Virus record (IMG/VR): IMGVR_UViG_3300048587_000154
Coordinates: 1-61,913 of that record
DNA length: 61,913 bases
Direction: 5' to 3' (one strand)
DNA from: a virus
Taxonomy: Duplodnaviria > Caudoviricetes
Below the pieces are notes generated by a model, which was not told where the DNA came from, did no database searches, and saw nothing but the letters and a program-made list of their open reading frames with translations. Shown here piece after piece: positions 1-59,300 of this stretch (its first letter is position 1; every line of letters starts with the position of its first letter). The translations under genes and the position numbers were made by a program.

Positions 1-127
1 CATCAAGGTCTAGCACCTTTGCCTCAAGCGCGTTTTCGCCCATCGCCTCCTTCTTGGCGAGGATGGTGTTGTAGGTCTCGGTCAGCGTGTCGAGGAGGTC
101 TTGCTGTTCGGATGGCGTCAGCAACAT
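1..127. repeat. 127-bp terminal direct repeat, left copy (circular assembly overlap)
   Basis: Bases 1-127 (catcaaggtc...cagcaacat) are identical to 61787-61913. The repeat lies inside one continuous reading frame. Confidence 0.97.
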
Positions 128-3100: not shown

Positions 3101-6100
3101 GTTGCCAACGATGCGGTCGGCTCCGTGCGGGGTCTCCATGTCCAGCGCGTCGTTGTCGGTCACGCGGAAGCCCTGATTGCGCAAGGCTGCGGAGCGATCC
3201 TTGTTCAGTTCGTTGGCGTGAACCTGTTGGGTTTCGGGATCGGTGTCGATCAAGAGCGCGCCGTTGCCGGCTGTCGGCTCGTAGATGATCTTACCGCCTG
3301 CGACGTTCGCCAGGCGATCGACCACGTAGGCGAGCGGCATCGGCGTCGAATAGGCCTGCTCTGCGACGCTCTGCGATGTGCGGGTGGCAAGGCGCGGCTG
3401 GCGCTCGTAGAGGCTCACCAAGCGATCGTAGACCACTTCGCTACCGCGCTTCTTGCCGGCCTTGATGATGTCACGGGCAGCCAGCACAACGGCCTGCTCT
3501 ATGACCTCCTCGGCCTCCTTGTTGGCAATCTCCTCCTGCTTGGCCTTCCAGCCGTGATCCGCCAGCCACCTACGGGCCTGATTGATGGTCTCGAAGCGCG
3601 TATCAGGCGAAAGCAGATGGTCGCGAAGTTCTTCGACCACGGAAGCGGGCGTGTTAATTTTTTCGACCTCTTTTGCGGGCGTATTTTTTACCGGCTCGAC
3701 TGGCTTGGCCTCATCCGCGACCAGATAATCCTTGCTGCGGCCTTCCTTGTTGATCTGGATGCCGCCGCCCGGCACAAAGCCAACCGCTTCGGTCACACGC
3801 ACGTTGTTTTCCGTGTAGGACCGAACGCCCTTGTCATCCTCCCACACGGTGTTGCCGCGCGCATTGACGCCGATCTTGGTCCAGCGCCCGCTTTTCGTTG
3901 CCGGCGTCTCTGCCTTCGGCTCCGGTCTGGCCTTCTCGGCTGCGGCCTCGAAGGCGGCATCGGTGTATTCGTGCCCGCCCAACTCCGGCGTCTTTTCCTT
4001 GCCCAAATCGGCATGCAAGCGCGCCGCCTCCTTGGGCGATGTCATGCCGGTCGCATCGAGGCCGGGATAGTTGCGCGCGCCCTCCCAAAAACTCAACAGG
4101 TAGGGATGAATGGCCTTGCCGAAGTCGGCGGTCATAGCCTTGGCGAAATCGGCAAAACTTTTGACGCCAGACTCGATGTAAGCGCCGGCGATGGTCATGC
4201 CATCGACCAGCATTTCCGGGTCGATGCCGCTGTTGAGTTGCGACAGTTTCGAGCGAAGTCGGGCGCGGGCGGCTTCAACCTTGTCGGTGGTGAATATCTT
4301 GTTGCCGGCGAAACGATCGGTTGGCTTCTCCGTGGACTTGGCCTTCACCTGATTGTGCAGGTCCATGAGGTCGGTCTGCCTGGCATCGTCGCCGAACAGC
4401 CCGCCAACGTCCTTTTGCGGCTTGGCGGCCTTGAGCGGGGCATCGGCCTTGCGCTGGGCCATGGTAGCGTCGGAGGCGCGCTCTGCGCCGGGAATGACCG
4501 TCTGCGGCTTACCGTCGGCTCCGGCCTCGGTTTCCGGCTTACGGGCACGCAGCTTCAACAGCGCCAGGCGGGCAGTGCGCTTGTCGAAGGCCATGCCGTC
4601 AACAACGACGCCATCCTTGGAAGTCTGAATGCGGCGCTCGATGGTGGCGATCGCCGCATCGGCATTGCCGTTTTCACCAGCGAGCATGCGCTCGGCCATG
4701 ATTTCGGCCTCGGCGTTGTCGGCGCGCGGGGCTGGCTCGCTGCGGAGCGCGGCTAGTTCTTCGTCGGAGGCGAACGTGTCGCGTGCGCCGCCTTCTGTGC
4801 CCGTTCGAGCGCTTCCGCCGTCTGTTTCTTGGCCTGCACCTTGCGGCCCGCTCTCGCGGCCATCCGGTGCTTGTGCGCGGAAGTCTTGGCGATCTGCTTG
4901 CGCTTCGGATCGGTCGCTGCCTTGGCTTCCTGCTCGCGCTGCCGCGCCGTCCGCAAGTGCTGCTCCGGGGTGTACTTCATCGGACCCTACCTCATCGAAG
5001 AATGGAATAACCGGCGTTGCCTCGGCTTCGGGCTGCGGGTTGTCTGCGTCATAGCCCATCGCATCACGTTCAAGCGCATCGTCCACGCTCATCCCCCCAG
5101 TCATCAGGTCGATGACTTCTGCCATGCCAGCGGCATCGGGATCAATGCCCAATTCACGCAATTCAGCCATCGCGCGTTCGCGGGCGTTGACATGCTGACG
5201 TTCATCGGTGGCGCGGCTCTGATCTTCCCGCCAAGCCTGCGCCCAATCGTCGTCGTTGCGAGAGAACTGGTCGCGGCTGCCAATGTCGGTCGCAAGCGAT
5301 ACCAGCATGTCATCAATGGTCGAGGTGGAAAGCTCGCCATCCTCCGAGTCCTGCAAATAGCCGTTCTCGACCAGAAGCGCGCGGGCCTGATCGAGCGATC
5401 GGCCATTGGCGCGCACCAACTTGCCTACGCCTGGCACAAACACCTTGTCAGCGTCCATGTTGGCAAGCTCGCCCTTGTGATCGCGAACACCACCGCTGGC
5501 CGCAAGAAACTCGACCATCGACTGCGGGCGCTTCACACGGCCCTGTGCGTCTGCCGGCCAGCCTTCTTGCGTGGTTTTGACCTTGCCCATCGCATAGGGC
5601 GTGCGATGCGCCTTTGGCGTGGCGATCCAGTCGCGGAAGGCCTTCGGGGAAACCGACGTGATCGCGCCCACACGCTGGTTTCCCGATCCATCGGAGAACG
5701 CCTTGACGTACAGGTCGCGGGCCTGCGCGATGCTGTCTGCGCCAAGAATGACCTTATGCTCATCGAAGCGCCCGTTTTGCGTCGGCGCACGCTGGTCAAC
5801 GATGTAGATTTTCTTCGATTTCGGGTTGTCGCCCACGTACACATCGACGTGATCGCCGTCCGCGCCCGTGGTTTTCTTGATATACCCGTAATGCGCCGGA
5901 AGGACGGACTCCCATGCCGGCCCGTCGGGGTTCTTGTTGCGGCGCGTCGATCCCTTTGGGTTCTCGATCGTGATGTCTTGCCCGGCGATGCGAACATGCG
6001 CCTTCTTGTAGTTCCCAGCCTGCGCCTGTGCGTCCGACGGCTCGGCAACGCGCTGTCCAGCCGCTTCGAGGTCTTGCGAGGTCTCGATCGATGCCGGGCG

Positions 6101-15992: not shown

Positions 15993-17012
15993 TTAAGCCG
16001 CCGAGTCCCACAGGATGATGCGCGCGTTGAGCGCGTCGGGATGGCACAGGCCAGCTTCGCCGAGATAGTAGTAGGCCACGCCGTTGTCGCGACCATAGTC
16101 CTGCGGCAGCTTCGAGCGGATTTCCTCGGGAACAGCCGGGCTTTCGATCACCGTGTCGGCACCGAAGAACAGTGCCCACGACGACTTGGCGTTGTTCCAC
16201 GGGTCTGCCGCCGCCTGGTAGATGTAGTTGGCGCTGGCCGCATTGGCTGCACCCGCTACAAAGGCGGCGTCATTCGCGTGGCCCTTCGGGATTTCGTTCT
16301 GCTCGATGAAGCGAGTCGACTCGTAACGCCCGATTTCACCAGCAAAGATCATGCTGATGCCGGTCTCCGTGTACTGATGAATGTCCTCAAGCTCGTTCTT
16401 GAAGCCACGGAAGGTGGTTGGGTGTGAGATAGCGCAATAATCGTCGCCGGCAAACGGCGGGATATTGCGCTCCTTGGCGGTGTCCACGATCGCCTTAACG
16501 TGGGCGGCGGTCATGGCGAGGTTGTTGGTGGTGGCCGTCGCGCCGTTCGTGGTGAGAACGATCGAGGCGACGTCGGTGCCAGATACAGGCGCAACGCGCA
16601 GCGGCGTGCGGAAGAACTGGTAGGCCGTCATACGGTCGAACACCTTGCGGGCGTCGTCGCGCAACGTCTGGTCGATCACGTCCTTAACATCGTGTTCGCC
16701 CAGCAACTCGACCTTCTTGGTGAAGGGCACGGAATTGCCGAACTCGCCGATGGTAAGCGAACGCTGCTGGATGGAGAACTGGGTCTCCGGCATGCGCTGG
16801 CCTTCGAGGATCGGGCCACCACGGGTCTCCAGCGTTGAGTACACGTTCCAATTGTACGTGTCCCCCTTGTGGAGACCAAGGGCGTCGTCTTTCGCGTCCG
16901 CGAGATTGCGGAATTTGGTGCGCGGCTGCAACTCCATGCGGAGGTATTCGGAGAGGTTATCCGAATACAGGAAGCCGCCGCTGGCATCAGAGGACCAAAG
17001 CTGTCCGGTCAT
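15993..17012 (-). CDS. Major capsid protein
   Basis: 339 aa after the scaffold; EFGNSVP.T, GEIGRYE..RFIE, DYGR..GVA.YY motifs. Confidence 0.88.
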   Translation of the reverse strand: MTGQLWSSDASGGFLYSDNLSEYLRMELQPRTKFRNLADAKDDALGLHKGDTYNWNVYSTLETRGGPILEGQRMPETQFSIQQRSLTIGEFGNSVPFTKKVELLGEHDVKDVIDQTLRDDARKVFDRMTAYQFFRTPLRVAPVSGTDVASIVLTTNGATATTNNLAMTAAHVKAIVDTAKERNIPPFAGDDYCAISHPTTFRGFKNELEDIHQYTETGISMIFAGEIGRYESTRFIEQNEIPKGHANDAAFVAGAANAASANYIYQAAADPWNNAKSSWALFFGADTVIESPAVPEEIRSKLPQDYGRDNGVAYYYLGEAGLCHPDALNARIILWDSAA

Positions 17013-22405: not shown

Positions 22406-24772
22406 TCAATTCATGGTCGATGGCTTGGCGGTGAACACCCGGCCATCCGGCATCGTCACGCTCTTGGGCTGGTTGAGCGTTTCGATCATCTTGGCGATCA
22501 GCGCTTGTGTCTGCGCCTGCATCTGCATCACCTGTTCCACAAGCTTGTCGGTGTCGCCGTCATCGATCGGCGGTAGACCGACCTCGCCGCGCTTTTGGTT
22601 GTGCGCCGCGATCGCTTCGGAACGCCGGGAGCGGAGCGCCATTTCATGCTCCTCGCGCTTCCAGTCGTGTTCCTGCTTGGCGCGCTCCGACTCGGCCTGC
22701 ATTTCCTGCATCTTGAAGTCGTGTTCCTGCTCGCGCGCCTTGGCTTCGGCTGCGGCCTTGACCTCCTCCGGGTCGGGCTTTGGCTGTTGCTGCTCCGGGG
22801 TCAGCTTCTTGATGAAGCGCGACACGTCCTTATACCCCAGCAAGCCCCAAAGCTCTGTTGCGATGCCAACAGCATCGGGGCGGCATCCGTCGGCAGCAAG
22901 GATGGGCGTCATTTCCATGGTGGACTTCGCGCCCGCCATGAGCTTTTCGACCTTCTGCTTCGAGTCCAACGCGCCTATGCCGACATCAACGCGGACAGTG
23001 ACGGGCAGCGCCTCGAATGACTGCATGACCTCCTCAAGCGTCACCTGCGGCTGTGCCTGTTGCTCTTGCGGGTCGCTGTCCTCGATACCGGGCTTGGGAA
23101 CGACGCCGCCGATGACAAGGCCGGCGTTCTCGCCTGCCACGGCCATGATAAGTTCGTCGCTCTCGTAATACTGGATCAGGCGCACCAACTGGCGCAACAC
23201 AGGCTCCACCCACGTCTCAACCCACACGCGAAGGTCAAACTCGGTCAGCGCGTTCGATGACTGCGACATGAGGTTCATGCCGCCCACGGTCTCGTTAAGC
23301 TGGCGGTTGGTCTGCACCGATCCCGTGGAGAACACGCCGGCAAGCTCATCGAAATCAACGGCCAGGTTGTTCATGTCCTGTTGCGCGCCGCCATCGGGGC
23401 CGGGCGCGCGGTCGAACGTCACATCGTCCTCATCCTCGACCATCAGCGTCGAGTCGGGGCCACGGTTCTGCACTTGCTTGAGGTCGATGTTGCGCCCGCG
23501 CTTGACCTTGGTGATGGGCGAGATTGCCATCTTGCGGGCGTCCAGCGTCAGGTTGACGTTTTCGTTCATTTCCTGCTGTAGCTGCTGCCACGTCTCGACT
23601 GGAGCGGCTGGGAACGCCTTGTGCGCCTCGACGGCGGCGACGCCGCGCACATAGGGACGATCGCCTCTCTGCTCTGGATAGGCCTCACGGGTCGGGCGCG
23701 GATCGGACAGGATGATATGCTCGCCCAGCATCCACCAAGTGTAATCCTCGCCGTCGTAGCGGTAGAACACCTCGTAGAGCCAAAGGATGTCGCTGTCCTT
23801 CGAGGCGTGCCGGCTCTCGTACCGATCGATCCCCGATGTCTCACGCGCCCGGCGCACGCCTTGCGTGTCGCGCTGCTGGTTGGTCTTGCCGGCGCTCTTG
23901 ATCTTGGCAAGGTCGATGTCGTCACGCCATTTGCCGCCGCCAAGGCGCGGTCGCGATGCCTCTCGGCTTACCCACGACTCCAAGTCGCCCTCATTGACCG
24001 GGTAGCCGGCGACGAAATACGCGCCGCGCTGGATCGGATCGCGCCAGTCTGCCGTCGGGTCGATGAACGACTGTTCCGGGGGAATGTTGTCGATCATGAT
24101 GCGATCGGCCTTGATGATCTTCTTCGGCACAATCTCGGATCGCGTGAGCGGCTTGCCATCCTCGCCCGGCAGCGGGAAGCCCGTCGCTTCGTCCGTAACC
24201 GGTTGTGTGACGATGCTATCGACGGTCAGTTCCTCGTACTCCCAGTATTGCTTGGAGACGCATATCCCCTGCAACTGGGCGTCTTGGTGCGCGCCGACAA
24301 CGGTCATGAAGAACGGCGGGCCTGCCTCGTTGCCGCGATCGAGGCGATAATTCAGCACTTCGTGCAGGAAGCGCGCGCCCATGCTCTGCACTGGGTCGCT
24401 CGATCGGGTGGCCGTGATGTTGACCACATCGTTTGTCGAAAACAGCGCTGCGGCTGCCGTGGCGTCGTTCTTGCGAACGGCCATGCGCGTCTTGGGTTTG
24501 AACAGCTTCGAGCGGTTGCGGTACTTCGGCGTATCGTACTTGGTGCCGTTCGGGTGCTTCGACTGGTAGGCGCGGAGGTTGCGCGACCATTGCGCGCGCA
24601 GCGAATTGTTCTGGTACTCGGAAGCCGCATCCAGCGCGCCCTTGAAGAACTTCTTCCAGTCGGCGTCATCCAGCATGTCGGGAGAGGCTGCGGCCTCGTT
24701 GTCATTGACGGCCTTTGAGGCCTCAAGCCCATCTTCGAGCGCGGAGCGTGTGTCAGGCGATGAGAGGGGCAA
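22406..24772 (-). CDS. Portal protein
   Basis: 788 aa; RSKLF.PKTR, ET.GGM..M motifs and a C-terminal coiled-coil barrel; between terL and the head genes. Confidence 0.88.
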   Translation of the reverse strand: MPLSSPDTRSALEDGLEASKAVNDNEAAASPDMLDDADWKKFFKGALDAASEYQNNSLRAQWSRNLRAYQSKHPNGTKYDTPKYRNRSKLFKPKTRMAVRKNDATAAAALFSTNDVVNITATRSSDPVQSMGARFLHEVLNYRLDRGNEAGPPFFMTVVGAHQDAQLQGICVSKQYWEYEELTVDSIVTQPVTDEATGFPLPGEDGKPLTRSEIVPKKIIKADRIMIDNIPPEQSFIDPTADWRDPIQRGAYFVAGYPVNEGDLESWVSREASRPRLGGGKWRDDIDLAKIKSAGKTNQQRDTQGVRRARETSGIDRYESRHASKDSDILWLYEVFYRYDGEDYTWWMLGEHIILSDPRPTREAYPEQRGDRPYVRGVAAVEAHKAFPAAPVETWQQLQQEMNENVNLTLDARKMAISPITKVKRGRNIDLKQVQNRGPDSTLMVEDEDDVTFDRAPGPDGGAQQDMNNLAVDFDELAGVFSTGSVQTNRQLNETVGGMNLMSQSSNALTEFDLRVWVETWVEPVLRQLVRLIQYYESDELIMAVAGENAGLVIGGVVPKPGIEDSDPQEQQAQPQVTLEEVMQSFEALPVTVRVDVGIGALDSKQKVEKLMAGAKSTMEMTPILAADGCRPDAVGIATELWGLLGYKDVSRFIKKLTPEQQQPKPDPEEVKAAAEAKAREQEHDFKMQEMQAESERAKQEHDWKREEHEMALRSRRSEAIAAHNQKRGEVGLPPIDDGDTDKLVEQVMQMQAQTQALIAKMIETLNQPKSVTMPDGRVFTAKPSTMN

Positions 24773-26491: not shown

Positions 26492-29400
26492 CTAGTCCAC
26501 GGTTGCAGGGGTTTCCGGCACTTCGTCATTGGTCGAGGCCGGAAGCGCTTCGATGTCGTAGATGCGCGACGTGGCGTCCACCAAGTCATCCCGCGTGCCG
26601 AACGGGAAATACAGCATTTCCTCCATAAGAGCGCGGGTCAGGTCGTACACCTTGTCCAACTCATCCTTGCGCATGAGCGGCTTGGCATTCAGGTACTCTT
26701 GCCCGCGATCCTTCGCCATCTTCTGCACCTTCAACTCGCCGTCGAGGGGAGTGAAGCTCATGTAGCCCTTCTCGATGTCAGGCTCCCACAGGCAGGTTTT
26801 GCCGTTCGCGTAGACCAAGCCGGGGAAAAAGAAGGTCGAGTATTGCACGTCCGGTTGCAGGCGCTCGACACGATCGCGTTTCGAGTTGCCGCCCTCGCGC
26901 GGCCATGCAAGCTCATGAATGGCGAAGTTGTACTTCTCGGCGCGCATGCGCTCTTGGAAATACTCATCGTCCGATTGCTGGCCGAAGCGCTCGTATCCGA
27001 CCTTCACCAGCATGACGCCCGGCATCTTCGACCATTTCTTGTGGTAGTGCTTCAACTGGTCCCAGCGCTGCGAGAGCTTCATGCGGTGCCTGGCACCGTC
27101 GAGGAAGTATTTGTTGCCCTGCGCATCCACGCCAATGACCGCGATGGCCGTGTTGTCGGACTTGGCCGTGCGCCCGCGCGAAGGATCGGCGAGGATATAC
27201 ACGTTCAGCGCGGCAGGCCGAACGAACCACGGTTTCATCCATTCGGCATGGAACGTCTTTGCCGTGCCGCCCAGCGGGTTTTGAAGCATCTGCGCGTTGA
27301 CGGTCGATAGCTGCTTGACCTTGGCCTTGTCCCATTGCGCTTGCGTCATCATGACCGGCTTGCCGTCCAGCTTGCCATTGTGCGTTGCCGGGTAAAGGCG
27401 CGGCTTGACGATCCCGCGCCCGATCAGGTCGCCATAGGTGTCAGCAAAACTATTCGAGGAGCAAAAGCCCTCAACCACGTAGTTGCCTGTTTCCGTCTCA
27501 AGCCAATGCACGTCGGCAACACCGGCAGCCTCGACCTTGCTTAGCTTGATGCGCCTTGTGGTCAATTGGCCGTACAATGTCTGTGCCAGCTTCTCAAAGC
27601 GTGCCGGGGCGATCTGCGCGAGGAAGCGATAGCGCTCTCGCCATCCTCCGTTGATGAGGAACACACAGCGGTCGTTCCAATGCTTGGCGCTCGGCTTGTG
27701 CCACGCCTCCGACCACTCGAAGCCCAGTTCCGACAAGACGCGGCGGGTTTCGTTGATCAATTCCGGGTGCGCCATCGTTTGCGTGATGGTGACCGCTCCG
27801 CTTGGGTGGTGTTTGTTCTTCTTGATGCTGCCTTCGCCGTCGAAGAAGCCGGCCAGCCAGCCGGCATCGCGGCCTTGATCCTCCTCGATCGGATCAACCA
27901 GTTCGCGCAATGCGATGAGCCTGCCGTCGCATTTCTTGTTGAGGAATGCTCGATCCTTCCTGACGTGCGCAGAAAGGCCGAGCGGAGCGTATTCCGGGCC
28001 ACCGCCATGCGGCCCGCGCCACCATTTGTGATCATCCGTGCAAACGACGGAACGGCCATTGTCCAGATGGTAGCGGTTGACCGCCTGGCAGAAGTGAACG
28101 CCACGGTTCACAACCTTCGCAGGGCGCAGCCAGCGCTTGCCGTCTCGAAGCTCCCAGCCAACGACTGTATCGCCTATGCGAACGTCTGCGATCGGCTTGT
28201 GCGACCAATCTCCCATCAAGATGCGCTGGTCGCCGCGCGTGCAATAGCGCGTGCCCACCATCCATTCCCGGCCCTCTGCGGTGCCAAGGTTGGTCGATAG
28301 CTCGTAGCTCGATGTGGTCTTTGCCACCTGCTCCGGGGTCGTCACCGACTCGCGCGTCACCATGTCGTCGTAGTTGCGCAGCGCAAAGTGCTTCGATGTC
28401 GGTTGCCCATCGACCACGCCCCAGCCTTCAACCGTGGCTTCCTTGGGGTTGCCCTTGCGCCGGATCGTGAAAGCCTGCTCCGACCAGATGGGAGCCTCGC
28501 CCTTGGGCTTCATCCAGCAGATGTCCGGGTAGATCATCCGCATTTCCGATGTCTCGAACTCGCGCCTGATCTGCGCGACGAACTTCTTTGCGATGGCTGC
28601 CGTGTGGGCAAAGATGCCGATCGTTATCTCCGGGTCATTGATGATTTCCTGCACACACCCGGCAAGCGTGATGATGGTCGAGTTGTGGGTGGTAATGTGC
28701 TGGCGACCGGTAAGGTATAGGCCATCGGTGCGCGCCACCTGAATACACCGCACCGGGACGCTGGCTACCGGCTCAACGCTGATGATGGCGTGTCGCCCGG
28801 AGCGTGTGCGTTTGGCATTCGACGCCCGCGCCTGTTTTCTTGGCAGGTGAAACACGGCTGGACCGTCGGCCTGCACTTGGAAGCTCACCTGATAGTACGG
28901 GTAGTCATCGCCCTTATATTGCCCAACTGGGCGACGGATCGACGGCTTGAGGCCGAGACCGGCAGCTAGGTCGAATACGTCATTTGCGAGCCGTTCCGTC
29001 GCATTGCAAAATGTCGCCGTTCCCCGTCCATCGCAGTGGCCGTCCGTGTCCATGAGACCGCGCAACAACTCCCAACGATCCTCTATCGATGCGCATTGGT
29101 AGGGGCCTGGGATGTGCTTGTTGGTGAACGTTCCCGCCTCACGAAGAAGGGCCGCAAGACCATAGATGCCGACCGCAATACCCCTGCCGCGCCGACGACG
29201 GGTCCGGTGCCCAAGCGCCTCGATCCTTTCGATGATCGCGTTGTCGAAAGGATCGTTGGCTATAGCCGCCGCGCCGCGCGCTCCATCCCCAAGCCATGCG
29301 CCGAGCACATAGGGATGGAGCGGCAATGGCGATGATGATGCGCCAAAGTCCAGCGCAGCAGCCACGGGTACGCTAGGCCACACCGCGCCCTTGATGAGCC

Positions 29401-30010
29401 GCGCATGATCGACCTTCTTCATCAGCGTCCGCGTATCGATAGTAACCCTGGCTCGACCGGCTCTCTTGTTGCCGCTCACCCGCGCGCGGTTGGCGATGTC
29501 CACTGTCCACAGGTGATCGCCGCTGCACACGATGCTCTCACCCTTGTCGAAGGTCACGCGGTAGCAGTCGGCGTCGGTGAAGATCGGCGTTTGGGCCACA
29601 ATGCGGGTTGGCTTCCCGTCGGGGCCGAACACCTCATCGCCAACCTTGAGGTCGCCGAAAGGTCGCCATCCGAGCGGTGTTATCGTCGGTGTTTCAAGAC
29701 ATTCGGCTTTGTAATGGTAGCGCGCCCATAGGTCCAAGTGGCCGTCGGGATCGCCCTCGACCTCGCGGCAGCGATCGTAGAGCCATGGGTGGAAGGCGTC
29801 TGTGCGCGCCAAGATGTTTGTCAGCAGGAAATATCGATCGACCGCGCCGAGGTAGGCGATATCCCCGATCGCGCCCACCTCGGCAATTTGTGTGTAGAAG
29901 TCCACGGCCTCCATGAAATCCATGGCGTGCAGTTCGCCAATCTCGGCATAGCGCACAAGATCGGGGCTGGCGGATGCACGGTACAGGGTGCCTTGGTACT
30001 TCTCGAACAT
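26492..30010 (-). CDS. terL: Terminase large subunit with two inteins (1,172-aa precursor, about 566 aa spliced)
   Basis: After removing inteins: P-loop WARYHYK/ST, Walker B YDD, GTRY; nuclease DPS..SD.TA and DDLVDA. Start placed at MFEKY. Confidence 0.9.
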   Translation of the reverse strand: MFEKYQGTLYRASASPDLVRYAEIGELHAMDFMEAVDFYTQIAEVGAIGDIAYLGAVDRYFLLTNILARTDAFHPWLYDRCREVEGDPDGHLDLWARYHYKAECLETPTITPLGWRPFGDLKVGDEVFGPDGKPTRIVAQTPIFTDADCYRVTFDKGESIVCSGDHLWTVDIANRARVSGNKRAGRARVTIDTRTLMKKVDHARLIKGAVWPSVPVAAALDFGASSSPLPLHPYVLGAWLGDGARGAAAIANDPFDNAIIERIEALGHRTRRRRGRGIAVGIYGLAALLREAGTFTNKHIPGPYQCASIEDRWELLRGLMDTDGHCDGRGTATFCNATERLANDVFDLAAGLGLKPSIRRPVGQYKGDDYPYYQVSFQVQADGPAVFHLPRKQARASNAKRTRSGRHAIISVEPVASVPVRCIQVARTDGLYLTGRQHITTHNSTIITLAGCVQEIINDPEITIGIFAHTAAIAKKFVAQIRREFETSEMRMIYPDICWMKPKGEAPIWSEQAFTIRRKGNPKEATVEGWGVVDGQPTSKHFALRNYDDMVTRESVTTPEQVAKTTSSYELSTNLGTAEGREWMVGTRYCTRGDQRILMGDWSHKPIADVRIGDTVVGWELRDGKRWLRPAKVVNRGVHFCQAVNRYHLDNGRSVVCTDDHKWWRGPHGGGPEYAPLGLSAHVRKDRAFLNKKCDGRLIALRELVDPIEEDQGRDAGWLAGFFDGEGSIKKNKHHPSGAVTITQTMAHPELINETRRVLSELGFEWSEAWHKPSAKHWNDRCVFLINGGWRERYRFLAQIAPARFEKLAQTLYGQLTTRRIKLSKVEAAGVADVHWLETETGNYVVEGFCSSNSFADTYGDLIGRGIVKPRLYPATHNGKLDGKPVMMTQAQWDKAKVKQLSTVNAQMLQNPLGGTAKTFHAEWMKPWFVRPAALNVYILADPSRGRTAKSDNTAIAVIGVDAQGNKYFLDGARHRMKLSQRWDQLKHYHKKWSKMPGVMLVKVGYERFGQQSDDEYFQERMRAEKYNFAIHELAWPREGGNSKRDRVERLQPDVQYSTFFFPGLVYANGKTCLWEPDIEKGYMSFTPLDGELKVQKMAKDRGQEYLNAKPLMRKDELDKVYDLTRALMEEMLYFPFGTRDDLVDATSRIYDIEALPASTNDEVPETPATVD
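27452..28243 (-). mobile_element. Intein 2 in TerL (264 aa, Cys1, one LAGLIDADG motif)
   Basis: GTRY|CTRGDQ...CTDDHKW...LAGFFDGEG...NYVVEGFCSSN|SFADTY. Confidence 0.85.
28682..29707 (-). mobile_element. Intein 1 in the TerL P-loop (342 aa, class-3 type, LAGLIDADG endonuclease)
   Basis: HYK|AECLETP..TP.GW...DHLW...LGAWLGDG...LRGLMDTDG...VRCIQV...ITTHN|ST. Confidence 0.92.
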
Positions 30011-30020
30011 CGCGTCGCGT

Positions 30021-30998
30021 TTACACGATGTGCGGCGGCGACGACATGATCGCAAAGATGCGGTGGATCGCCATATCCACCTGCTCAAGCCCCTTCTGGC
30101 CGGCATACCAGTCTTTGTTCGACAATACCCAGCCGCACAGTTCGGAAATGGCAATGCGTGCCGCTGCGAGATTGCCCAGCATGTGGATATTGCGCAGATC
30201 GCGCTCCTTCTCCGACCAGTAGCCGATCGCTTCCGCCTTGCCGTCGCCGGTCTCCTCCTTCATGCGCTTTTCGAAATCCTTGGCGCTGCGCTTCATCACT
30301 TCCTCACGGAGTGCGGCGGCTGCACCGTCCTCTGCGGCTTGGGTCTTGGGGCTGTCGATCCTCCCCGCCATGAGCGCAAGAATGTCAGCGAGCGCTGTGA
30401 ATGCTTCATCCGGGTCCGGGTCTGCCCCAACCTTTGACTTGGCTTGGAACTCCATCAGGACCGCCAGCGCGGATGACAAGGCCGCGTCGAGTTCATCCCT
30501 GATGTGCCTCTTGCTGGCCTGGCGGTTGTCACGATCCATCTGCACGTCATCGCGACCGCCGTTGAGAACTCGGTTGATGGCTGCGTCGAGGTCGTTGAGG
30601 CATTCTTCGTCAAGGTCGGGCACACCCTCGCCAAGCGAGACTTTGATGGTGATGCAGCCGGGCGGCACCTCGATGTCGTCCCACGCCTGCTCGTAGTGCG
30701 CCCGCTTGCCGTCGTCGGTATCGGCGATGGCCTCGTTGTGGGCGTCGATCGCCTCGCTTATGGCCTTGGCGAAGCCGGGGAACAATGCGCCCGTGCTGGC
30801 CGCACCGCCGCCGCCATCCATGGTGTTTGGGGCGGCGCTCATCACGACGATGCCGTTCTTGATGTAGCTCTCAAGCTGCGTCGCCTGCGCGATGATGTCG
30901 GCGGTCTGCATGCCGTATCCGTGAGCGTCCAAAAGCTGCCCGATCAGTTGCGCCCGGATCGCGACCGCTTCATTCGCCTTTTCGTATTTCTTGCCCAT
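30021..30998 (-). CDS. Hypothetical protein (325 aa)
   Basis: AGGAG RBS; long ORF with typical codon bias. Confidence 0.75.
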   Translation of the reverse strand: MGKKYEKANEAVAIRAQLIGQLLDAHGYGMQTADIIAQATQLESYIKNGIVVMSAAPNTMDGGGGAASTGALFPGFAKAISEAIDAHNEAIADTDDGKRAHYEQAWDDIEVPPGCITIKVSLGEGVPDLDEECLNDLDAAINRVLNGGRDDVQMDRDNRQASKRHIRDELDAALSSALAVLMEFQAKSKVGADPDPDEAFTALADILALMAGRIDSPKTQAAEDGAAAALREEVMKRSAKDFEKRMKEETGDGKAEAIGYWSEKERDLRNIHMLGNLAAARIAISELCGWVLSNKDWYAGQKGLEQVDMAIHRIFAIMSSPPHIV

Positions 30999-31235: not shown

Positions 31236-31327
31236 TTGCGATGCCTTTCGATCAACTCGAACACCAGCACGACGGCAAAGAAGGCCAGCCAGATTGTCAC
31301 GTCGATCAGTGATATCGATTGTTCCAC
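31232..31327 (-). CDS. 31-aa membrane peptide
   Basis: GTG start with GGAG RBS, one hydrophobic helix (IWLAFFAVVLVF), ATGA overlap. Confidence 0.45.
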   Translation of the reverse strand: MEQSISLIDVTIWLAFFAVVLVFELIERHRK

Positions 31328-31363
31328 GCCGTCGCTCCGGTGTCCGCTTATTTTCGTATTCGT

Positions 31364-31392
31364 ATTGCCGCTATCTGTCCAGCGCGGTAAAT
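31364..31392 (+). promoter_or_regulatory. Putative sigma70 promoter of the brnA-like gene, flanked by three TTCGTATT motifs
   Basis: ATTGCC-N17-GTAAAT; motif copies at 31353, 31359 and 31401. Confidence 0.45.
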
Positions 31393-31428
31393 GCTTCCAA
31401 TTCGTATTGCTGCCATGGAGCGAAGGAT

Positions 31429-31734
31429 ATGGCCATCAAGATCGCCTCTACGGTCGATGAGACCGCCGCTAAGCCCGTCAAGCGGGCGCGCCGTGCGCCA
31501 CAGGCCTCAAAATCAAAGCTCGCAAAGCTGCAAAAACCGGCAGAAACGCCCGTTGCGGCCAAAACGCAATCGGAAGCCCCAGCCGAAAAGCATGGGCGCG
31601 GCAGGCCAGCGACCGGCAAAATCATCGTCACGCTGCGCCTCGATCCCGATGTGGTGGAGGCCTTGAAGGCGGGTGGTGCGGGCTGGCAGCCGCGCGCCAA
31701 TGCTCATCTGCGCAAGGCGCTGGGCCTCAATTGA
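31429..31734 (+). CDS. brnA: BrnA-family ribbon-helix-helix antitoxin-like protein (orphan)
   Basis: GRP...K..VTLRLDPDVVE..KA.G.GWQ.R.N..LR signature; inverted relative to neighbours. Confidence 0.85.
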   Translation: MAIKIASTVDETAAKPVKRARRAPQASKSKLAKLQKPAETPVAAKTQSEAPAEKHGRGRPATGKIIVTLRLDPDVVEALKAGGAGWQPRANAHLRKALGLN

Positions 31735-32613: not shown

Positions 32614-32837
32614 TTCGTATTTCTCTTGATGGCGTTGCCGCTGGTGATGGTGCGGTGGCCGTCCTCGAACTCCAACAGGATCGAGTTGAAGTTCTTGGGC
32701 GCTGGCGGGGTGCCGACGATGGCAATGCCCGGATCGACCGGCTGCGCCGGCATGCGGCGACTGCGGGCGAGGACTCGGCACGCCTGGCCTTTGCGGTCGC
32801 CTTCGTTCCAGCGGTAGACGTAGCGAAAATCAGTCAT
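32610..32837 (-). CDS. Hypothetical protein (75 aa)
   Basis: Overlaps both neighbours; RKGQ.CRVLAR..NS.L.EFEDG motif. Confidence 0.6.
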   Translation of the reverse strand: MTDFRYVYRWNEGDRKGQACRVLARSRRMPAQPVDPGIAIVGTPPAPKNFNSILLEFEDGHRTITSGNAIKRNTK

Positions 32838-33363
32838 CGGCCTTGTTTGCGATCTTGCGCAACTCCTCGACCTGTTCGAGCGTGACGCGGGGAATGGCGG
32901 CAAAAGCCTCCCTAGCGCGCGCCGTGGCTGCTCTCTCCTCTGCCAAAAACACAAGAAAGGCCTCATGTGCGGCGTGCGCCTCCGGCGTATCCGGCATCAG
33001 TTCTTTCAGTTCGGCGTCTCGACGCGAAGCGCGTGAGGAGCCGGGGCGCTGGGCGACCACGGCTACAACGTGATCGATCGATACGACTTCGTTGCTGTGG
33101 TACTTCTTGTTCTCGACCTTCTTCACATACTCCACGATCTGCGCTTCGGTCTTGGACTGGGAAAAGGTGGATGAGTGGGCTTTCCCTATCTCGAAGCACT
33201 TGACGGCGCTGGCCTTGCGCACGGCCAGCAACATCGTGTCGATCCGGGCGCGTACCTTCGCCAACGATGGCGAGGTGTAATAATTGCCAACGTCGGCGCA
33301 ATACCATTCGTCCGCGTTCTCGTTGAACGTGATCTTGTATCCCCGATGATCGACCTCAATCAT
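32830..33363 (-). CDS. Hypothetical protein (177 aa)
   Basis: ATGA overlap; typical codon use. Confidence 0.65.
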   Translation of the reverse strand: MIEVDHRGYKITFNENADEWYCADVGNYYTSPSLAKVRARIDTMLLAVRKASAVKCFEIGKAHSSTFSQSKTEAQIVEYVKKVENKKYHSNEVVSIDHVVAVVAQRPGSSRASRRDAELKELMPDTPEAHAAHEAFLVFLAEERAATARAREAFAAIPRVTLEQVEELRKIANKADD

Positions 33364-33590
33364 GACTTCCACCTCAAATAGCGCTTCGTTGACTTGTCGT
33401 ATGTGCATCGGTTCGGAAACCGATCCTGATACTTGGTGAGGTCCAGCGATGCCTGCGGCATGCTTATCTCGAACTTGCGAATGATGTGGTCGCGGTTGAT
33501 GAAGCCGTAGATATCCAGCATTTCATCGATCCACATCAGGCGGCGGCGCTGAAACCATGGAAGATCGGCTATGCGCTCCGCGTCCGTCAT
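33360..33590 (-). CDS. Stand-alone CapW-like winged-helix protein (no WYL domain)
   Basis: RL.WI...L...G.INR..I...F.IS.PQAS.DL..Y.......YDKS.KRY matches my recollection of the CapW N-terminal wHTH. Confidence 0.75.
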   Translation of the reverse strand: MTDAERIADLPWFQRRRLMWIDEMLDIYGFINRDHIIRKFEISMPQASLDLTKYQDRFPNRCTYDKSTKRYLRWKS

Positions 33591-33790
33591 GACCGCGCCT
33601 GCTTGCGAAGCATGTAGCCCGACCCCTTGCCGGGACCGGACAGGATGCGCCAGCCTTCATCCTTCAACGCGCGCACGTCGCGGTAGACCGTGCGAACACA
33701 CACGCCCGTCTTGGCCGCTATCGTCTCGCTGCCTACCATCGTGCCTGCGATCATCAGGATGATGGTCCTGTGCCGTTCTTCTCGCGTCAT
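33587..33790 (-). CDS. Stand-alone HTH_11 (YafY/PafB-type) winged-helix protein
   Basis: IA...GV..RTVYRDV.AL...G..I....G.G.GY.L; GGAGG RBS. Confidence 0.8.
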   Translation of the reverse strand: MTREERHRTIILMIAGTMVGSETIAAKTGVCVRTVYRDVRALKDEGWRILSGPGKGSGYMLRKQARS

Positions 33791-34374
33791 GCCTTTGCCT
33801 CCTGCATGGTGGATGGATCGGCCAGGCGGTCGATATACGTGCCCTTGTCGTGGCCGGGAATGGGCGCGTCGAGGGAAAGCGTGGACCATGTGTCCATCAG
33901 CTTGTTGAAGCGCCTGTAGGCGTCCTTCACCAGCTTATCCATGTCTCCCAGCTTCGCGCGGCCTTCGAGGATATCGAGGCAGATCATGCCGGCGATGTCG
34001 TCACGCAATGATTTCTGCCAGCCGCGCGGGATCGCCTTCACGATGTCGCGGTATATCGCGTCCGGGTTCATGGCGATGGCGCTCTTGACTTTCAGCCGGG
34101 CGCAGTAGGCCCGGTTGGCCGCGTTCCGCCTGTCGTTGTTGGCCGTACTCCACGCCTTGTACCAAGCGCGGTAGCGTTCGATCTTCTCCGGTGTTGATCG
34201 GCTGCGCTGATAGGCACGACGGCTCAATTCCTTGAGCTTTTCGGGGTCAAGTTCCTTGAGGCGCTGACGATAGAGGCGACGCCTGAAATTGTGCTTCTCC
34301 TTGGCGCTCATGGCTGCCCATTTCTTGAACGGCACACCGTAGCTGTTTGCGCCGTATGTACCTGCCCGCGCCAT
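33787..34374 (-). CDS. Basic protein with a sigma-factor-like SLDAP C-terminus
   Basis: Arg/Lys/Tyr-rich helices, then LSLDAPI; GAGGT RBS. Confidence 0.6.
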   Translation of the reverse strand: MARAGTYGANSYGVPFKKWAAMSAKEKHNFRRRLYRQRLKELDPEKLKELSRRAYQRSRSTPEKIERYRAWYKAWSTANNDRRNAANRAYCARLKVKSAIAMNPDAIYRDIVKAIPRGWQKSLRDDIAGMICLDILEGRAKLGDMDKLVKDAYRRFNKLMDTWSTLSLDAPIPGHDKGTYIDRLADPSTMQEAKA

Positions 34375-34586
34375 CACGTCACCTCGTCGGATAGAGCGGC
34401 GCGACCGGCTTCGGTGATGGTCCACACAGGTCGGAGAGCGCTCCCTTCTGTCTCGAAGAATTTTAGCACCATGCCGCGCTCAACTAGCCGGCTGACGGAT
34501 CGCTCGTCCGTAATGTCGAATACGCCATTGGGCTGCGAGCTAAGCCAGTCCAGAACCCGCAGCTGTGCCTTCGTCAGCTTCATCAC
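34374..34586 (-). CDS. Small winged-helix-like protein
   Basis: LTKAQ..L...L..RG.V....ITEAGRAAL. Confidence 0.6.
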   Translation of the reverse strand: MMKLTKAQLRVLDWLSSQPNGVFDITDERSVSRLVERGMVLKFFETEGSALRPVWTITEAGRAALSDEVT

Positions 34587-48438: not shown

Positions 48439-48667
48439 TGAAAATCCCATCACGTTCCCAGCCATCGCGCGTTGCGCCTTCAAGGAAGGTGGCAAGCTCT
48501 ACGACTACATCGCGCCATTTCCCGTTTTGGTCGGGCAGCGCGTTTGGATCGACGGGCGCTACGGCAAGACCAAGCTGATTGTCGGCGAGGTCATTCAGGA
48601 GTCCGAGAAGGCCACGGCTTCCCTGATCGGCATTGTCGAGGAAGAACAGGAAAACGCCGATGAATGA
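48431..48667 (+). CDS. Hypothetical protein (78 aa)
   Basis: GGAG RBS; F...GK.YDY motif. Confidence 0.65.
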   Translation: MSDENPITFPAIARCAFKEGGKLYDYIAPFPVLVGQRVWIDGRYGKTKLIVGEVIQESEKATASLIGIVEEEQENADE

Positions 48668-49811
48668 TCACAATCGAAGCGGCGGCGGCAACAATGCCGT
48701 CGCCACCATCGAACCATCCCGCCTTGCGCTACCACCTGCCATCGCCAAGGAGTTCAGCGTCGAGGCGGCAGACTGGCGCGTGCTGGTCGATCAGATATTC
48801 CCATCGGCCAAGACGGTTGGCTCTGTGCTTTTGGCTCTGTCCTACTGCCGTCGGCGCAACCTCGATATCTTCAAGAAGCCGGTTCACATCGTCCCTATGT
48901 GGTCAACGGCCAAGGGACAAATGGTCGAAACCGTCTGGCCGGGCATCGCTGAAATCCGCACCACTGCCGCCAGAACCGGGAAATACGCCGGCATCGACGC
49001 GGTAGAGTTCGGTCCCATGATCCCGCGTGAGTTCGTGGGTGAAACCACGCAATGGGAGGAGGACGAACAGACCGGGCGAAAGCACAAGAAGAAGGTCACC
49101 ATCACCAAACAGGTGCTTTACCCGGAATGGGCTTCCGTCGTCGTTTACAAGATGCTCGACGGGCAGCGGTGCGCCTACCACGCCAAGGTCTACTGGGAGG
49201 AAGCTTACGCCACCATCGGCAAGACCAACGTGCCGAACGAAATGTGGGAGAAGCGCCCGCGCGGCCAGTTGGACAAATGCGTTGAAGCTGCCGCGCTGCG
49301 CAAGGCCTTCCCCGAAGAACTGGGCAACACCTATGCGGCGGAAGAAATGGAGGGCCGCACGATCGATCACGCTGCATCTGACGCGCCTGCCACCGCCAGC
49401 GCCGCCCCTCCTGATCCGCATGCAGGGGATAAGGCCGAAGAAAACCACGGCGGCGAAGTGGAAGATGCAGAGTTCGAGGAAGTGAACGAAGATGAGGAGG
49501 TCGAGGACAAGAAAGCCGCCGATCCCAAGTCTAAACCTAAGCCCGTCGATAAAGCGAAGCCTGCGCCGTCTGGCGGCGCTCCCAATCCCGACGATGACGA
49601 TGACGATGACGACGGCGACGGCAGCGAAGGCGATAGCCACTTCTTTGCCCTCCTACGTGAAACCATCCGCAAAGCCGACACGGAGGAGGAGGTGGAAGAA
49701 GTCTGGACCGACGCCGATCCCATGGCGCGCTTCGAGGGCAACGAAGTCATGCAAAAGACCGCGCTCGCCATCAAGAACGTGCGATTGAAACAACTGCAAA
49801 AGGCGCAATGA
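48660..49811 (+). CDS. bet: RecT/Bet single-strand annealing protein
   Basis: C....LD.F.K..HIV, GI...R..A.RTG.YAG, W.K.P..QL.KC.EA.ALRKAFP. Confidence 0.88.
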   Translation: MNDHNRSGGGNNAVATIEPSRLALPPAIAKEFSVEAADWRVLVDQIFPSAKTVGSVLLALSYCRRRNLDIFKKPVHIVPMWSTAKGQMVETVWPGIAEIRTTAARTGKYAGIDAVEFGPMIPREFVGETTQWEEDEQTGRKHKKKVTITKQVLYPEWASVVVYKMLDGQRCAYHAKVYWEEAYATIGKTNVPNEMWEKRPRGQLDKCVEAAALRKAFPEELGNTYAAEEMEGRTIDHAASDAPATASAAPPDPHAGDKAEENHGGEVEDAEFEEVNEDEEVEDKKAADPKSKPKPVDKAKPAPSGGAPNPDDDDDDDDGDGSEGDSHFFALLRETIRKADTEEEVEEVWTDADPMARFEGNEVMQKTALAIKNVRLKQLQKAQ

Positions 49812-56022: not shown

Positions 56023-56322
56023 ATGTTGAAATTTGCCGCCGCATTCTATGCGTTGTTCGTTTGTAGTGCGACCGCCTGCGATATCTTTACTGGGGAAGGC
56101 TCCGAGTTCGTCCCCGGAGCAACGCTTACATGGCATCCCGACGGGATATTCACACTCGCCGACTCGGATGGGTCGAAGGACTATGTTTTCCAGTCCACGG
56201 GAATGACTGATGTTCCCTACTCCATGGGCGTCTCGACCAAGGATAAAAACGATGTCGTCTTGATCCGCGAGCTTGATGGCAAGTGGATCATCGACATGGT
56301 GGTTTTCACCTGCGCTCATTGA
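56023..56322 (+). CDS. Secreted or lipoprotein-like 99-aa protein, inverted in the late operon
   Basis: GGAGGA RBS; signal peptide ending SATAC. Confidence 0.65.
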   Translation: MLKFAAAFYALFVCSATACDIFTGEGSEFVPGATLTWHPDGIFTLADSDGSKDYVFQSTGMTDVPYSMGVSTKDKNDVVLIRELDGKWIIDMVVFTCAH

Positions 56323-59300
56323 CGGCTGGCCTTGACGTAGGCCTTGCGCGCCTCGCGCATGGCGTCCAACTCGGCCTTTTCCAGTTCATCAAGCCGCTTC
56401 TTCTTCTGCGCCGCCGCCATGCTGTCGTCAGCTTCGAGTCGGCGGCGCTCTTTGTTCAGTGCCTTGCGCTGCTTTTCTGCCGCCTTGAACGCACCTGCCG
56501 CCTCAAGCTCTGCCGTGTGCGACTTCCGATAGGCATCTGCCTTTGCCGTCTGGCCGCTCTCGTTGTAGGTTTTCAGATACCCCTCTGACGCCATGACGGC
56601 CTCGCGCTCGCGGTAGTATTCGGTGCGCTGCGAATTTTCATCAATCTCGCCATAGAAGTTGCGCACCCACGGCGTCTTGCCCGGCTCAAACTCGCCCACA
56701 AGCGCGTTTTCCGCCGTCTGCTCGACACCAGTAACGAAGCGGCCAAGCCCGCCGACGAAGTATCCCCACAGATGCTCCAACGTGTCGGGGTGGATATCGA
56801 CCGCGCCTGGCACCACCTCATCACCGCCGCTTGTCCAGTTGATGAGTTCGGCCAACTTCCTGAATGCCGGGTGCGTGGTCGAGAACGCTTGCGAGCTTTC
56901 CGGCGCTGGCGATCGATCGAACGGATTGCTGTCCGGGTAGATCGGTGATCCCGCGAAGTTCTCGTTGCTGATGATATCAACAGCGGGATCGCCAATAGTC
57001 GGCGTCACCATGGAAGCCATGGAGCCGGAGCCGATCGGGTTGAAGGCGTCGAAAGCAACGCGGATCGCTGACAAGATGCCCGTCATCGGGTCTTGCGCGC
57101 CCGAAGCGATGGCCGCGCCCTGCAAGCCCAAGTGATGGAAGGCGTTGTAGCCATAGGCCATCGGGAACGAAACGTATTTCTCGGTGCCGGGGATGAAGAA
57201 CACATACTGGCGTTCGAGCTTGTAAGGCTCGTTTTTCAGCATCTTCTCATAGTACGACTCGCCGTCGTCATCCGTGCCGGAAAACAGCATGTTCCAAACG
57301 TGCTGCATCATCCCGCCAAATATGAACGTGGCGATCGCCGCGCGCACCGCCTTTGAGCGCACCGCCCTCGATCCGACGTTGTAAGCGCCCTGCGCAGCCG
57401 CGTTGAAGAACACGAACCATGCGTTCATCGCCGGGCCAAGCTCGCCATGCTTCTTGAAGTCCACGGTCAGGTCGCGCGCCATGAACGCGGCTTCCTTGGC
57501 CGTGCGGCCCTGAATGTTGCGGGCTGCCGCATAAGAGGCCAGGCGGATGCCGTTTTCGCCAGCATCGTTCAAATCGCCAACGAATTTGGTGACGGCGCGG
57601 TACGCCGCTTTCATGGGCGTGACGCCGTTGACGGCCTCGGTCATCTGCTTTTGCAGCTTGTGCAGGTTTTCTTCCAGCGTGGCGTAACCGTGGAACGTGA
57701 TCTTGCCGCCTGCCTCGACATACTCTGCGGCCATCTTGTCCCAAACACCGTCGCCAGCCTTCTTGCGCGACAAACGCCACAATGCGCCCATCGCCTGCGG
57801 GATGTTCTTCGTGATGGTGGCGATCTGCTTGACCGAAAAGCCTTCGTCCAGCAGGTGCGTTGTGCCTGTCTGAATGTCCCTGATGATGTTGATCGGGGTG
57901 AAGGCCGGGTTGGCGCGGGTGTTGACGATCGACTGCCACACGGTAAGCGGGCGCACGATCTTGGAGAGTGTTCCCAGTTCGGCCATACCCATCTTGCGCA
58001 GCGCGAGGCCGATCTTCGGATCGCGGAAGCGGATATAGAACGTCCGTCCGCCCACCTTCGCGGCCAACACGTCATCAAGGTTCGAGAACGGGTTGGGCAC
58101 GCGGCGATAGGTGACAAGACCATCCTTGCCGATCACGCGCTTGAACACGTCCGGGGCTTTGGTGATGTCGCCAAGGAACTTGTCATCGCCCGACCAGTAG
58201 ACTTGCGCGATATGCTCGCCTTCCGGGTCGAACTCGTTGATGAAGCGCGCCATGGCCTTGCCGACGGCGTTCTTGTGCTGGCGCAAGATCGATTGCTCGT
58301 TTTGCGTGATCGCATGCGCAAGGATGTTCTCGGCCTCGGAAAAGCGGCCCATGGCAACCTTGAACTCATCACCGCGCACATCGAAGCCGCCAGCGCCGTG
58401 ATTGTGCCAGAAGCCGTCCGATGTCATGCCCTCCATGCCCTTGAGGGGCACGTAGTTCTTCCACTGCGTCGTCAATAGGTCGAAGGTCTCGGCGCTGATG
58501 AGACCGGCCTTGCGCTGGTTCTTCAATTCGGCATCGATCATTTCCCTGATGGAGCCGGCAGCGATGCGCAAGGCGCGGTGCTTTTCCGGGTCGCTGCGGG
58601 CGTCCGCGATGATTTCGCGCACCTGATCGATTGACATGCCGGAAGCGCCGACAACCGACGAGTCGAAGATCGCCCGGTAGAACTGGCTTTCCTGCGGGTG
58701 GCGCATGCCGACGACGCGGTTCCGCTCCTCGGCGTGCAGGGCGTAGAGGTACTTGTGCAAATCCTCCAAGCTCGCGCCACCATCCGCCAGCGCTTTCACT
58801 GCCGGCGCGACATAGGTGTCGTGCATGCGCTCGATCTGCGGCAGCGCCCGATCTTCCATCAGGCGGGCGTTCAGATAGGCGTCGTTCAACTCGGACAGCT
58901 TGTAGCCGCCGCGCTCCTGCATCATGCGCAGCGGGTGAAGATAGTCGATCCACTTGCGGGTCAGGTAATCGCCAAAGCTCTCGCCGTCATCCTTGTGACT
59001 GCGATCCTTGGTCGTTGATATGCCCTTGAGCGTGGCCGTAGTGTTGCGAAGCATTTTGGCAATGCGCTGGCCCACCAATGCGCCAGGCGCTTTGCTCGGC
59101 TCGATCTTCGGCGGCACAAACTCGGCCTTGTCTGGCATCTGCATTTCTGCGGTGATGGAAATACGGTTATCGTCATAGATGACGTAATTGTACGTGCCCT
59201 TGCCGTCTGAACGCGATCCCCGATCGAGATAACGATGGCCGGGGATGCCAGCCGCACGCAAAGCTTCGGATGCGGCGCGATCGTTTGGAACAGTCTCACG

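Follow-up and report, generated by a model that had tools for sequence, protein, structure and literature searches.

Two small winged-helix proteins without sensor domains in an accessory operon of a 62-kb phage, one of them of the CapW/BrxR type

We analyzed two adjacent genes, A and B, in the genome of a virus of the Caudoviricetes (Duplodnaviria), record IMGVR_UViG_3300048587_000154. The record is complete, 61,913 bp long with a 127-nucleotide (nt) terminal repeat, and the whole of it is called the window here. Gene B encodes a winged helix of the CapW/BrxR type that has no sensor domain, and gene A, judged by its sequence matches, encodes a generic small phage protein of the HTH_11 (helix-turn-helix) class. 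Both genes are real, cleanly delimited and translationally coupled, as are their operon neighbors. The explanation that we favor, which we consider probable though far from certain, is that A and B encode two separate small winged-helix proteins that bind DNA and serve as independent constitutive regulators in an accessory operon of the phage. Both would be made from this tightly packed, translationally coupled operon of the 62-kb phage, B as a ligand-blind relative of the CapW/BrxR DNA-binding domain and A as an ordinary small phage HTH_11 regulator acting on its own sites. The two genes are as follows (lengths in amino acids, aa).

33587..33790, minus strand: gene A, 67 aa, ATG to TGA, stand-alone HTH_11 winged helix-turn-helix (open reading frame, ORF; Pfam PF08279)
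33360..33590, minus strand: gene B, 76 aa, ATG to TGA, stand-alone CapW/BrxR-type winged helix (WHD_BrxR, PF26109; phmmer, AlphaFold2 and Foldseek)

A preliminary description had proposed adjacent 76-aa and 67-aa genes with clean starts and stops; the ORFs were confirmed on the minus strand, and the motifs quoted there are found in the translations. Chance ORFs or a split gene were ruled out by the E-values given below, by the purifying pattern in B and by the lack of a WYL domain downstream.

CapW/BrxR-type WYL repressors control many defense systems, and two recent studies show that release of this repression determines whether defense prevails over prophage induction and over inhibitor-armed phages (PMC11662680; bioRxiv 10.1101/2025.11.13.688357). 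A phage family that has the CapW/BrxR head, no sensor and its own dimer surface would represent either widespread unstudied transcription factors or a means to hold defense operons shut.

Fold and DNA-contact residues of the gene B product

To place B among known proteins, we compared it with the Protein Data Bank (PDB) by sequence and by structure. Its phmmer matches are to the N-terminal domains of CapW from S. maltophilia (7tb6, E = 2.4e-8), R. leguminosarum (9c5g, 1e-7) and P. aeruginosa (7tb5, 4e-7) and of BrxR from E. fergusonii (7qfz, 7.5e-4), and they cover the N-terminal 70 residues. AlphaFold2, run with 55 relatives, gave a model with a predicted local distance difference test score (pLDDT) of 96.1. 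Its best PDB matches in a Foldseek search are again the CapW/BrxR N-terminal domains, with a TM-score (TMq) of 0.84-0.88 and a root-mean-square deviation of 0.6-0.8 Å; unrelated winged helices rank below them, from E of about 3e-3. The earlier assignment of B to the N-terminal domain of CapW therefore holds by sequence, and the structural comparison with CapW that had been suggested as its check agrees. The precomputed Pfam label of B is PF26109, which is WHD_BrxR in Pfam 38.1 and is also named in the Atlas, where the clusters of B have scores of 0.95-0.97; of the top three clusters, two are 57% viral. Our own scans of Pfam and PHROG copies returned no match for B, in the case of Pfam because the copy scanned does not include PF26109.

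The protein ends 5 residues past the wing, so that its 76 aa hold no linker, WYL or WCX domain. No Pfam match to WYL was found in A, B or their neighbors, and a six-frame search for PF13280 (WYL) found nothing in the whole phage but matched 9 of 14 control genomes. The absence of a WYL domain noted earlier is thus confirmed, and B is a sensor-less CapW/BrxR-type winged helix. Because it lacks the WYL and WCX domains, its binding would be constitutive and could not be released by single-stranded DNA.

In S. maltophilia CapW, either R32A or the combination S42A/Q45A/S47A abolishes DNA binding, according to Blankenchip 2022 (PMC9122588). All four positions are identical in B (R33, S43, Q46 and S48 in the phmmer alignment). 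They are also kept in most of the 114 short relatives described in the next section: R at position 33 in 110, S at 43 in 105, Q at 46 in 102 and S at 48 in 90. These residues suggest that B binds DNA.

Relative to the solved CapW/BrxR proteins (7tb6, 7tb5, 9c5g, 7qfz and 7t8k), B shares the winged helix, the four DNA-contact residues and, as predicted, a twofold dimer. It differs in having no linker, WYL or WCX, and with them no sensing of single-stranded DNA and none of the main dimer contacts, and in carrying different residues at positions 27, 28, 35, 38 and 39. Its location also differs, as CapW and BrxR lie upstream of a defense operon and B lies inside a phage operon, with genes of no assigned function on both sides and the terminase downstream, and not at the head of a defense operon. 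B is best described as the CapW/BrxR DNA-binding head in the form of a free-standing, probably dimeric and ligand-blind phage protein.

The stand-alone WHD_BrxR family and its predicted dimer

Relatives of B were collected by an exhaustive HMMER search of 1.84 billion representatives, which gave 729 clusters at E ≤1e-3 and 77 at E ≤1e-10. Signatures, lengths and residues were counted in the best 150 of the 729 clusters. Most of these are short: 114 have at most 115 aa, 31 have 116-229 aa and 5 have at least 230 aa. Two signatures separate these hits. The first, signature S (H35 and K39, within [IV][YF]GFINRxH..RKF), occurs in 101 of the 150, of which 88 have at most 115 aa; the second, signature C (W27 and D35), occurs in 14, of which 13 are longer than 115 aa; the remaining 35 have neither. 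Gene B carries signature S and has the length of the subfamily. A WYL domain was found in all five signature-C proteins tested (three above the Pfam cut-off and two truncated ones below it) and in none of the five longer signature-S proteins tested, one of which bears an R67-DHFR-like tail in place of WYL.

The 75 best matches of B are all short or non-WYL proteins with at most 60% identity, and WYL-bearing proteins appear from about 50% identity down. We therefore ruled out that B is a recently clipped host regulator, as it belongs to an old and diverse stand-alone subfamily with its own signature. A tree of the domain (152 domains, 65 columns) was unresolved, with 1 of 149 branches starred, and thus allows no conclusion on single versus multiple origins of the stand-alone form. 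Next to proteins known by automatic names as stand-alone WHD_BrxR-only clusters of 71-96 aa, B has the same signature and length, and nothing structural differs. We found no study of stand-alone WHD_BrxR proteins in the full-text literature, although the supplementary homologue tables of BrxR/CapW papers may list short homologues.

A few relatives have odd architectures, namely P0080 (206 aa), P0125 (199 aa), P0076 (271 aa) and P0124 (201 aa). Two of them have two matched domain stretches and may be tandem copies, one consists of the domain and the R67-DHFR-like tail, and another has the domain at its C terminus after a region of about 130 aa of no known identity.

A pattern scan located 76 viral loci and, among 185,579 species genomes, 22 further loci that are mostly in Alphaproteobacteria. 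Because the scan pattern itself fixes residues 27-35 in these 98 loci, the residue counts reported here for those positions come from the unbiased HMMER list. A sensor would not fit in any of the 98 loci: the frame ends no more than 91 residues past the domain (median 9.5), and within 40 residues in 93 of them. In an evenly drawn set of 401 alphaproteobacterial genomes, a profile of the stand-alone family matched 28, with 29 matches, and 27 of these lie in open frames of 249-400 aa across 26 genomes. The sole clear short copy is in the genome at the center of the set, which was picked because it carries one; among the other 400, the full-length form is present in 26 and the stand-alone form in none. 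The viral and cellular scans are too dissimilar for a formal enrichment figure. In these sets the cellular form is the full-length one, the stand-alone form is seen mainly in phage contigs, and the stand-alone family is large and phage-carried.

The positions expected to read bases vary across the 98 loci (44, 49, 52 and 70). Position 44 of B corresponds to R38 of Acinetobacter BrxR, a residue that contacts a base (PMC9122589). Such variation is as expected for regulators with diverse operators.

It had been noted earlier that a protein reduced to this domain might lack a dimerization surface. Co-folding of B as a homodimer with its family alignment eases this concern at the level of a model, with a score of 0.48 in all three runs against 0.02 for the best of 3 controls. 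Among solved proteins, the mark used was attained for 20 of 30 same-chain pairs and 1 of 23 single chains. The partner pLDDT is 92, and the contacts agree fully (100%) between the three runs. The predicted interface consists of 11 contacts made by residues 26-28, 35 and 38-39, positions that coincide with those defining signature S. Among the 114 short proteins, I or V is found at position 27 in 100, Y or F at 28 in 96, H at 35 in 95, R at 38 in 78 and K at 39 in 98. The 16 longer proteins compared look different, with D at position 35 in 14 and H in 2, W at 27 in 14, one of E, D, R, S or Y at 28 in 14, and variable residues at 38-39. From this pattern we infer that a surface specific to the stand-alone family replaces the dimer contacts lost with WYL and WCX. 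B would then most likely pair with itself along helices 1 and 2 (I27, Y28, H35, R38 and K39), and the recognition helices of the two subunits (S43-x-P-Q46-A-S48, together with R33 and the wing) would enter successive major grooves of a palindrome of about 20 bp.

The same conserved surface bears on a different function, in which B acts on proteins and not on DNA, for example by pairing with the wHTH (winged helix-turn-helix) of a host CapW/BrxR and spoiling its DNA binding. The domains are homologous, and the two wHTH domains lie side by side in CapW/BrxR dimers (PMC9122588). However, B and the WYL-bearing type do not have the same residues at the predicted interface, the DNA-contact residues are strongly conserved, and such pairing would switch defense on, which is of no help to a phage. 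We consider this function very improbable.

Gene A and its linkage to gene B

Gene A matches Pfam HTH_11 (PF08279) over residues 9-59, with E = 1.2e-8 and 35.1 bits against a cut-off of 25, which bears out its earlier description as a wHTH domain that has no sensor. Further matches are to the N-terminal part of the PADLOC WYL model (E = 1e-7) and to phrog_13105 (positions 4-66 of 239), and, more weakly, to the heads of BirA, GlpR, YgbI and Csa3. In the Atlas it lies next to clusters of HTH_11 proteins that stand alone and have 58-83 aa; several of these clusters are 63-100% viral. A word-indexed search gave one relative of near-equal length, a 67-aa gene-caller product with 97% identity from a sister contig. 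Word-based searches found no longer relative of A, and a phmmer search of the PDB found no solved relative at E up to 1. Compared with HTH_11-WYL regulators of the YafY/PafBC type, A has 67 aa and no WYL or WCX after the HTH. HTH_11 also heads BirA and DeoR-like proteins, and next to all of these HTH_11 heads A has the domain above the cut-off and no effector domain. The matches thus do not earn A the proposed label of YafY/PafB type: there is no WYL, the word-based searches gave no longer relative, the heads of BirA and DeoR-like proteins match beside the PADLOC WYL model, and the nearest sequences are small stand-alone HTH_11 clusters.

Genes A and B share a stretch of overlapping genes with their neighbors, listed below.

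33798..33803, minus strand: AGGAGG, Shine-Dalgarno-like hexamer, 7 nt ahead of the ATG of A (sequence)
33787..34374, minus strand: upstream operon gene, about 195 aa from ATG, phrog_24127, no assigned function (ORF, PHROG)
33787..33790, minus strand: ATGA overlap, stop of the upstream gene and start of A (sequence)
33587..33590, minus strand: ATGA overlap, stop of A and start of B (sequence)
33360..33363, minus strand: ATGA overlap, stop of B and start of the downstream gene, MIEVDH... (sequence)
32830..33363, minus strand: downstream operon gene, about 177 aa, phrog_33873, no assigned function, missing in contig L010 (ORF, PHROG, blastn)
33351..33805, minus strand: block 97% shared with contig L010 (blastn)

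The phrog_33873 match starts at residue 17 of a longer, 192-aa ORF. One gene further upstream, the gene adjoining A is itself joined by a TGATG junction, so all four junctions in the stretch overlap and the coupling belongs to the operon, not specifically to the A-B pair.

If A and B were a functional pair, they could form a heterodimeric two-subunit regulator like the adjacent paralogues PafB and PafC, in which each subunit would bind one half-site of an asymmetric operator. The ATGA overlap would give coupled, near-equimolar synthesis, and the A-B block was inherited as a unit between two mosaic relatives, this phage and contig L010. Positions 1119-1573 of L010 correspond to 33351-33805 of the window, and the flanks differ on both sides (blastn), which implies that A and B move as one recombination unit. 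The evidence for their linkage comes from this single pair of close relatives. Over 431 nt the two differ at 9 nt, with 1 synonymous and 0 non-synonymous differences in B and 5 synonymous and 3 non-synonymous in A. Ahead of A, L010 carries about 380 nt more than the window, with a 131-aa ORF that has no Pfam match, and after B it has 214 nt in place of the window's 916 nt, which include the phrog_33873 gene.

The neighborhoods of other B homologues argue against such a pair. An upstream ORF is present in 92 of the 98 loci, and by Pfam only 1 of the 87 distinct ones contains HTH_11; it comes from the near-identical contig. A phmmer search with A across the B-homologue loci likewise found a relative in L010 alone, a contig 97-98% identical to the window. 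We therefore ruled out a conserved two-gene A-B module. Of the coupled pair described earlier, the ATGA translational coupling stands and a lasting association of the two genes does not. Since B alone is moreover predicted to homodimerize through a conserved surface, and the coupling is not particular to A and B, we regard a heterodimer of the two as quite improbable, and return to the view that they are independent regulators.

All-against-all clustering revealed no shared neighbor of the B homologues, the largest real clusters covering 7 loci, and the 84 distinct downstream ORFs are equally mixed. The neighbors include DUF5131, nucleases, DNA methylases, primase/helicase, integrases, resolvases and DUF4326, which are typical of phage early and replication regions. 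In the viral contig L036 (136-1295, the same contig as L006) the B homologue begins where a tyrosine integrase gene stops, and at several other loci B homologues have serine recombinases or integrases nearby. This gene order hints that some family members may serve in the control of integration or excision.

Possible targets and genomic context

As an independent regulator, B would permanently repress, or less probably activate, any promoter that carries a B operator. In our view the targets are more likely to be promoters of the phage itself or general host promoters than CapW/BrxR operators. Autoregulators of the anti-CRISPR-associated (Aca) type, encoded by a small HTH gene right after an anti-defense gene and repressing the promoter of that gene, were also considered; the neighbors here have no assigned function.

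Several results weigh against the explanation we favor. The dimer is known from a model alone, its interface is small, and the co-folding pass may reflect memory of solved CapW/BrxR dimers. Because most dimer contacts of CapW and BrxR come from WYL and WCX, the lone wHTH may, by analogy, bind weakly. The single-sequence model of A (pLDDT 52.7) is too poor for a fold search. A repeat scan of the phage showed no recurrent repeated or palindromic operator motif, and a scan for promoters and terminators yielded no usable operator, with 2 promoter sites against 6.3 expected by chance. Finally, B homologues have widely differing neighbors, and no B was seen with this query in a portal-related alphaproteobacterial genome, the one relative (37% identity) found by a portal search of the 401 genomes. 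The last two results indicate that B is an accessory gene and not a core phage regulator.

The same features can be understood in terms of host defense. B, with or without A, could be an uninducible mimic that occupies host CapW/BrxR-type operators and holds CBASS, BREX or similar operons off. If so, single-stranded DNA from phage replication or prophage induction could not release B, and inducible defense would stay basal; keeping CBASS, BREX and restriction islands at this level would be a form of counter-defense acting on transcription. There are reasons to expect a benefit. The uninducible CapW mutants S158E and R200A strongly compromised CBASS protection against lambda prophage induction (PMC11662680), and in V. 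cholerae the BREX levels raised by the release of BrxR overcome a phage inhibitor (bioRxiv 10.1101/2025.11.13.688357), so blocking derepression would pay for a phage. B keeps the DNA-contact residues of CapW. The stand-alone form is mainly viral and, as described above, missing from the other 400 alphaproteobacterial genomes. The variable, mosaic neighborhood is typical of accessory or counter-defense genes, and the same phage encodes a polyvalent protein.

The DNA-reading half of B also resembles CapW-type proteins more closely than its first half does. Residues 41-72 share 15-21 of 31-32 positions with the longer CapW-type hits, nine of these 16 proteins having 19 of 32, and residues 12-40 are less alike, with 11-13 of 25-29 identical. 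However, this difference is partly a selection effect, because the long hits entered the list by their similarity to B. Other observations also count against a mimic. B is not a recent copy of a host regulator, since its closest kin are all sensor-less and its family is old and diverse. The base-reading positions vary in the family and CapW/BrxR operators differ between systems, which means that broad mimicry across the family is not implied. Moreover, only 2 of 5 genomes that carry a stand-alone copy have a long-frame relative. On balance we consider it unlikely, although worth keeping in mind, that B is such a mimic. The more general proposal, in which phage stand-alone WHD_BrxR proteins are ligand-blind stand-ins for CapW/BrxR that act on defense operators through their own dimer surface, seems to us unlikely to the same degree.

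A protein of a lytic S. maltophilia phage also speaks for mimicry. CPT_Sonora_088 of Stenotrophomonas phage Sonora (MZ326860.1; locus L108, 3977-4204) is a 75-aa wHTH-only 'hypothetical protein' in a run of small phage genes and is 42% identical to B. It is much nearer to CapW proper than B is, with E = 4.9e-15 to 7tb5 and 3.7e-13 to 7tb6, the S. maltophilia CapW. It also differs from B in reaching the start of the linker and in lacking the GFINRxH signature. By its sequence, CPT_Sonora_088 is a natural candidate for a sensor-less CapW mimic and would be the best natural test case.

The operon of A and B lies in a genome whose minus strand holds the majority of the genes. A blastn search with 6 kb against 50,697 phage records gave no match to a close phage relative. 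The structural and packaging module spans about 1-31 kb of the window. It is followed at 31-47 kb by small genes of mostly unknown function, among them an MT-A70 methylase, a RusA-like nuclease and HNH nucleases, and A and B sit within this run. Genes outside the operon are placed as follows.

15993-17012: major head protein, structural/packaging module
22406-24772: portal, structural/packaging module
26492-30154: large terminase, structural/packaging module
48633-49811, plus strand: RecT

Two genes upstream of A there is a third small gene (34374-34586, minus strand, 70 aa) with weak winged-helix-like Pfam matches to PadR (E = 0.012), Mrr_N (0.013), and MarR_2 and LexA_DNA_bind (0.12). If the similarity is real, three small DNA-binding proteins would be encoded inside 1.2 kb. 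A plus-strand ORF (31294-31734) is embedded in the minus-strand operon, and its C-terminal part may resemble BrnA/DUF4415-type antitoxins.

The polyvalent protein mentioned above corresponds to a giant minus-strand frame of about 4,400 aa that covers 2-7696 and 56316-61913 and is joined via the 127-nt terminal repeat. It contains an InPase domain (E = 8.5e-47), a Strawberry-notch-like helicase (AAA_34 and Helicase_C_4) and LPD38. These three are hallmarks of a phage-type polyvalent protein, according to Iyer et al. 2017 (PMC5512222).

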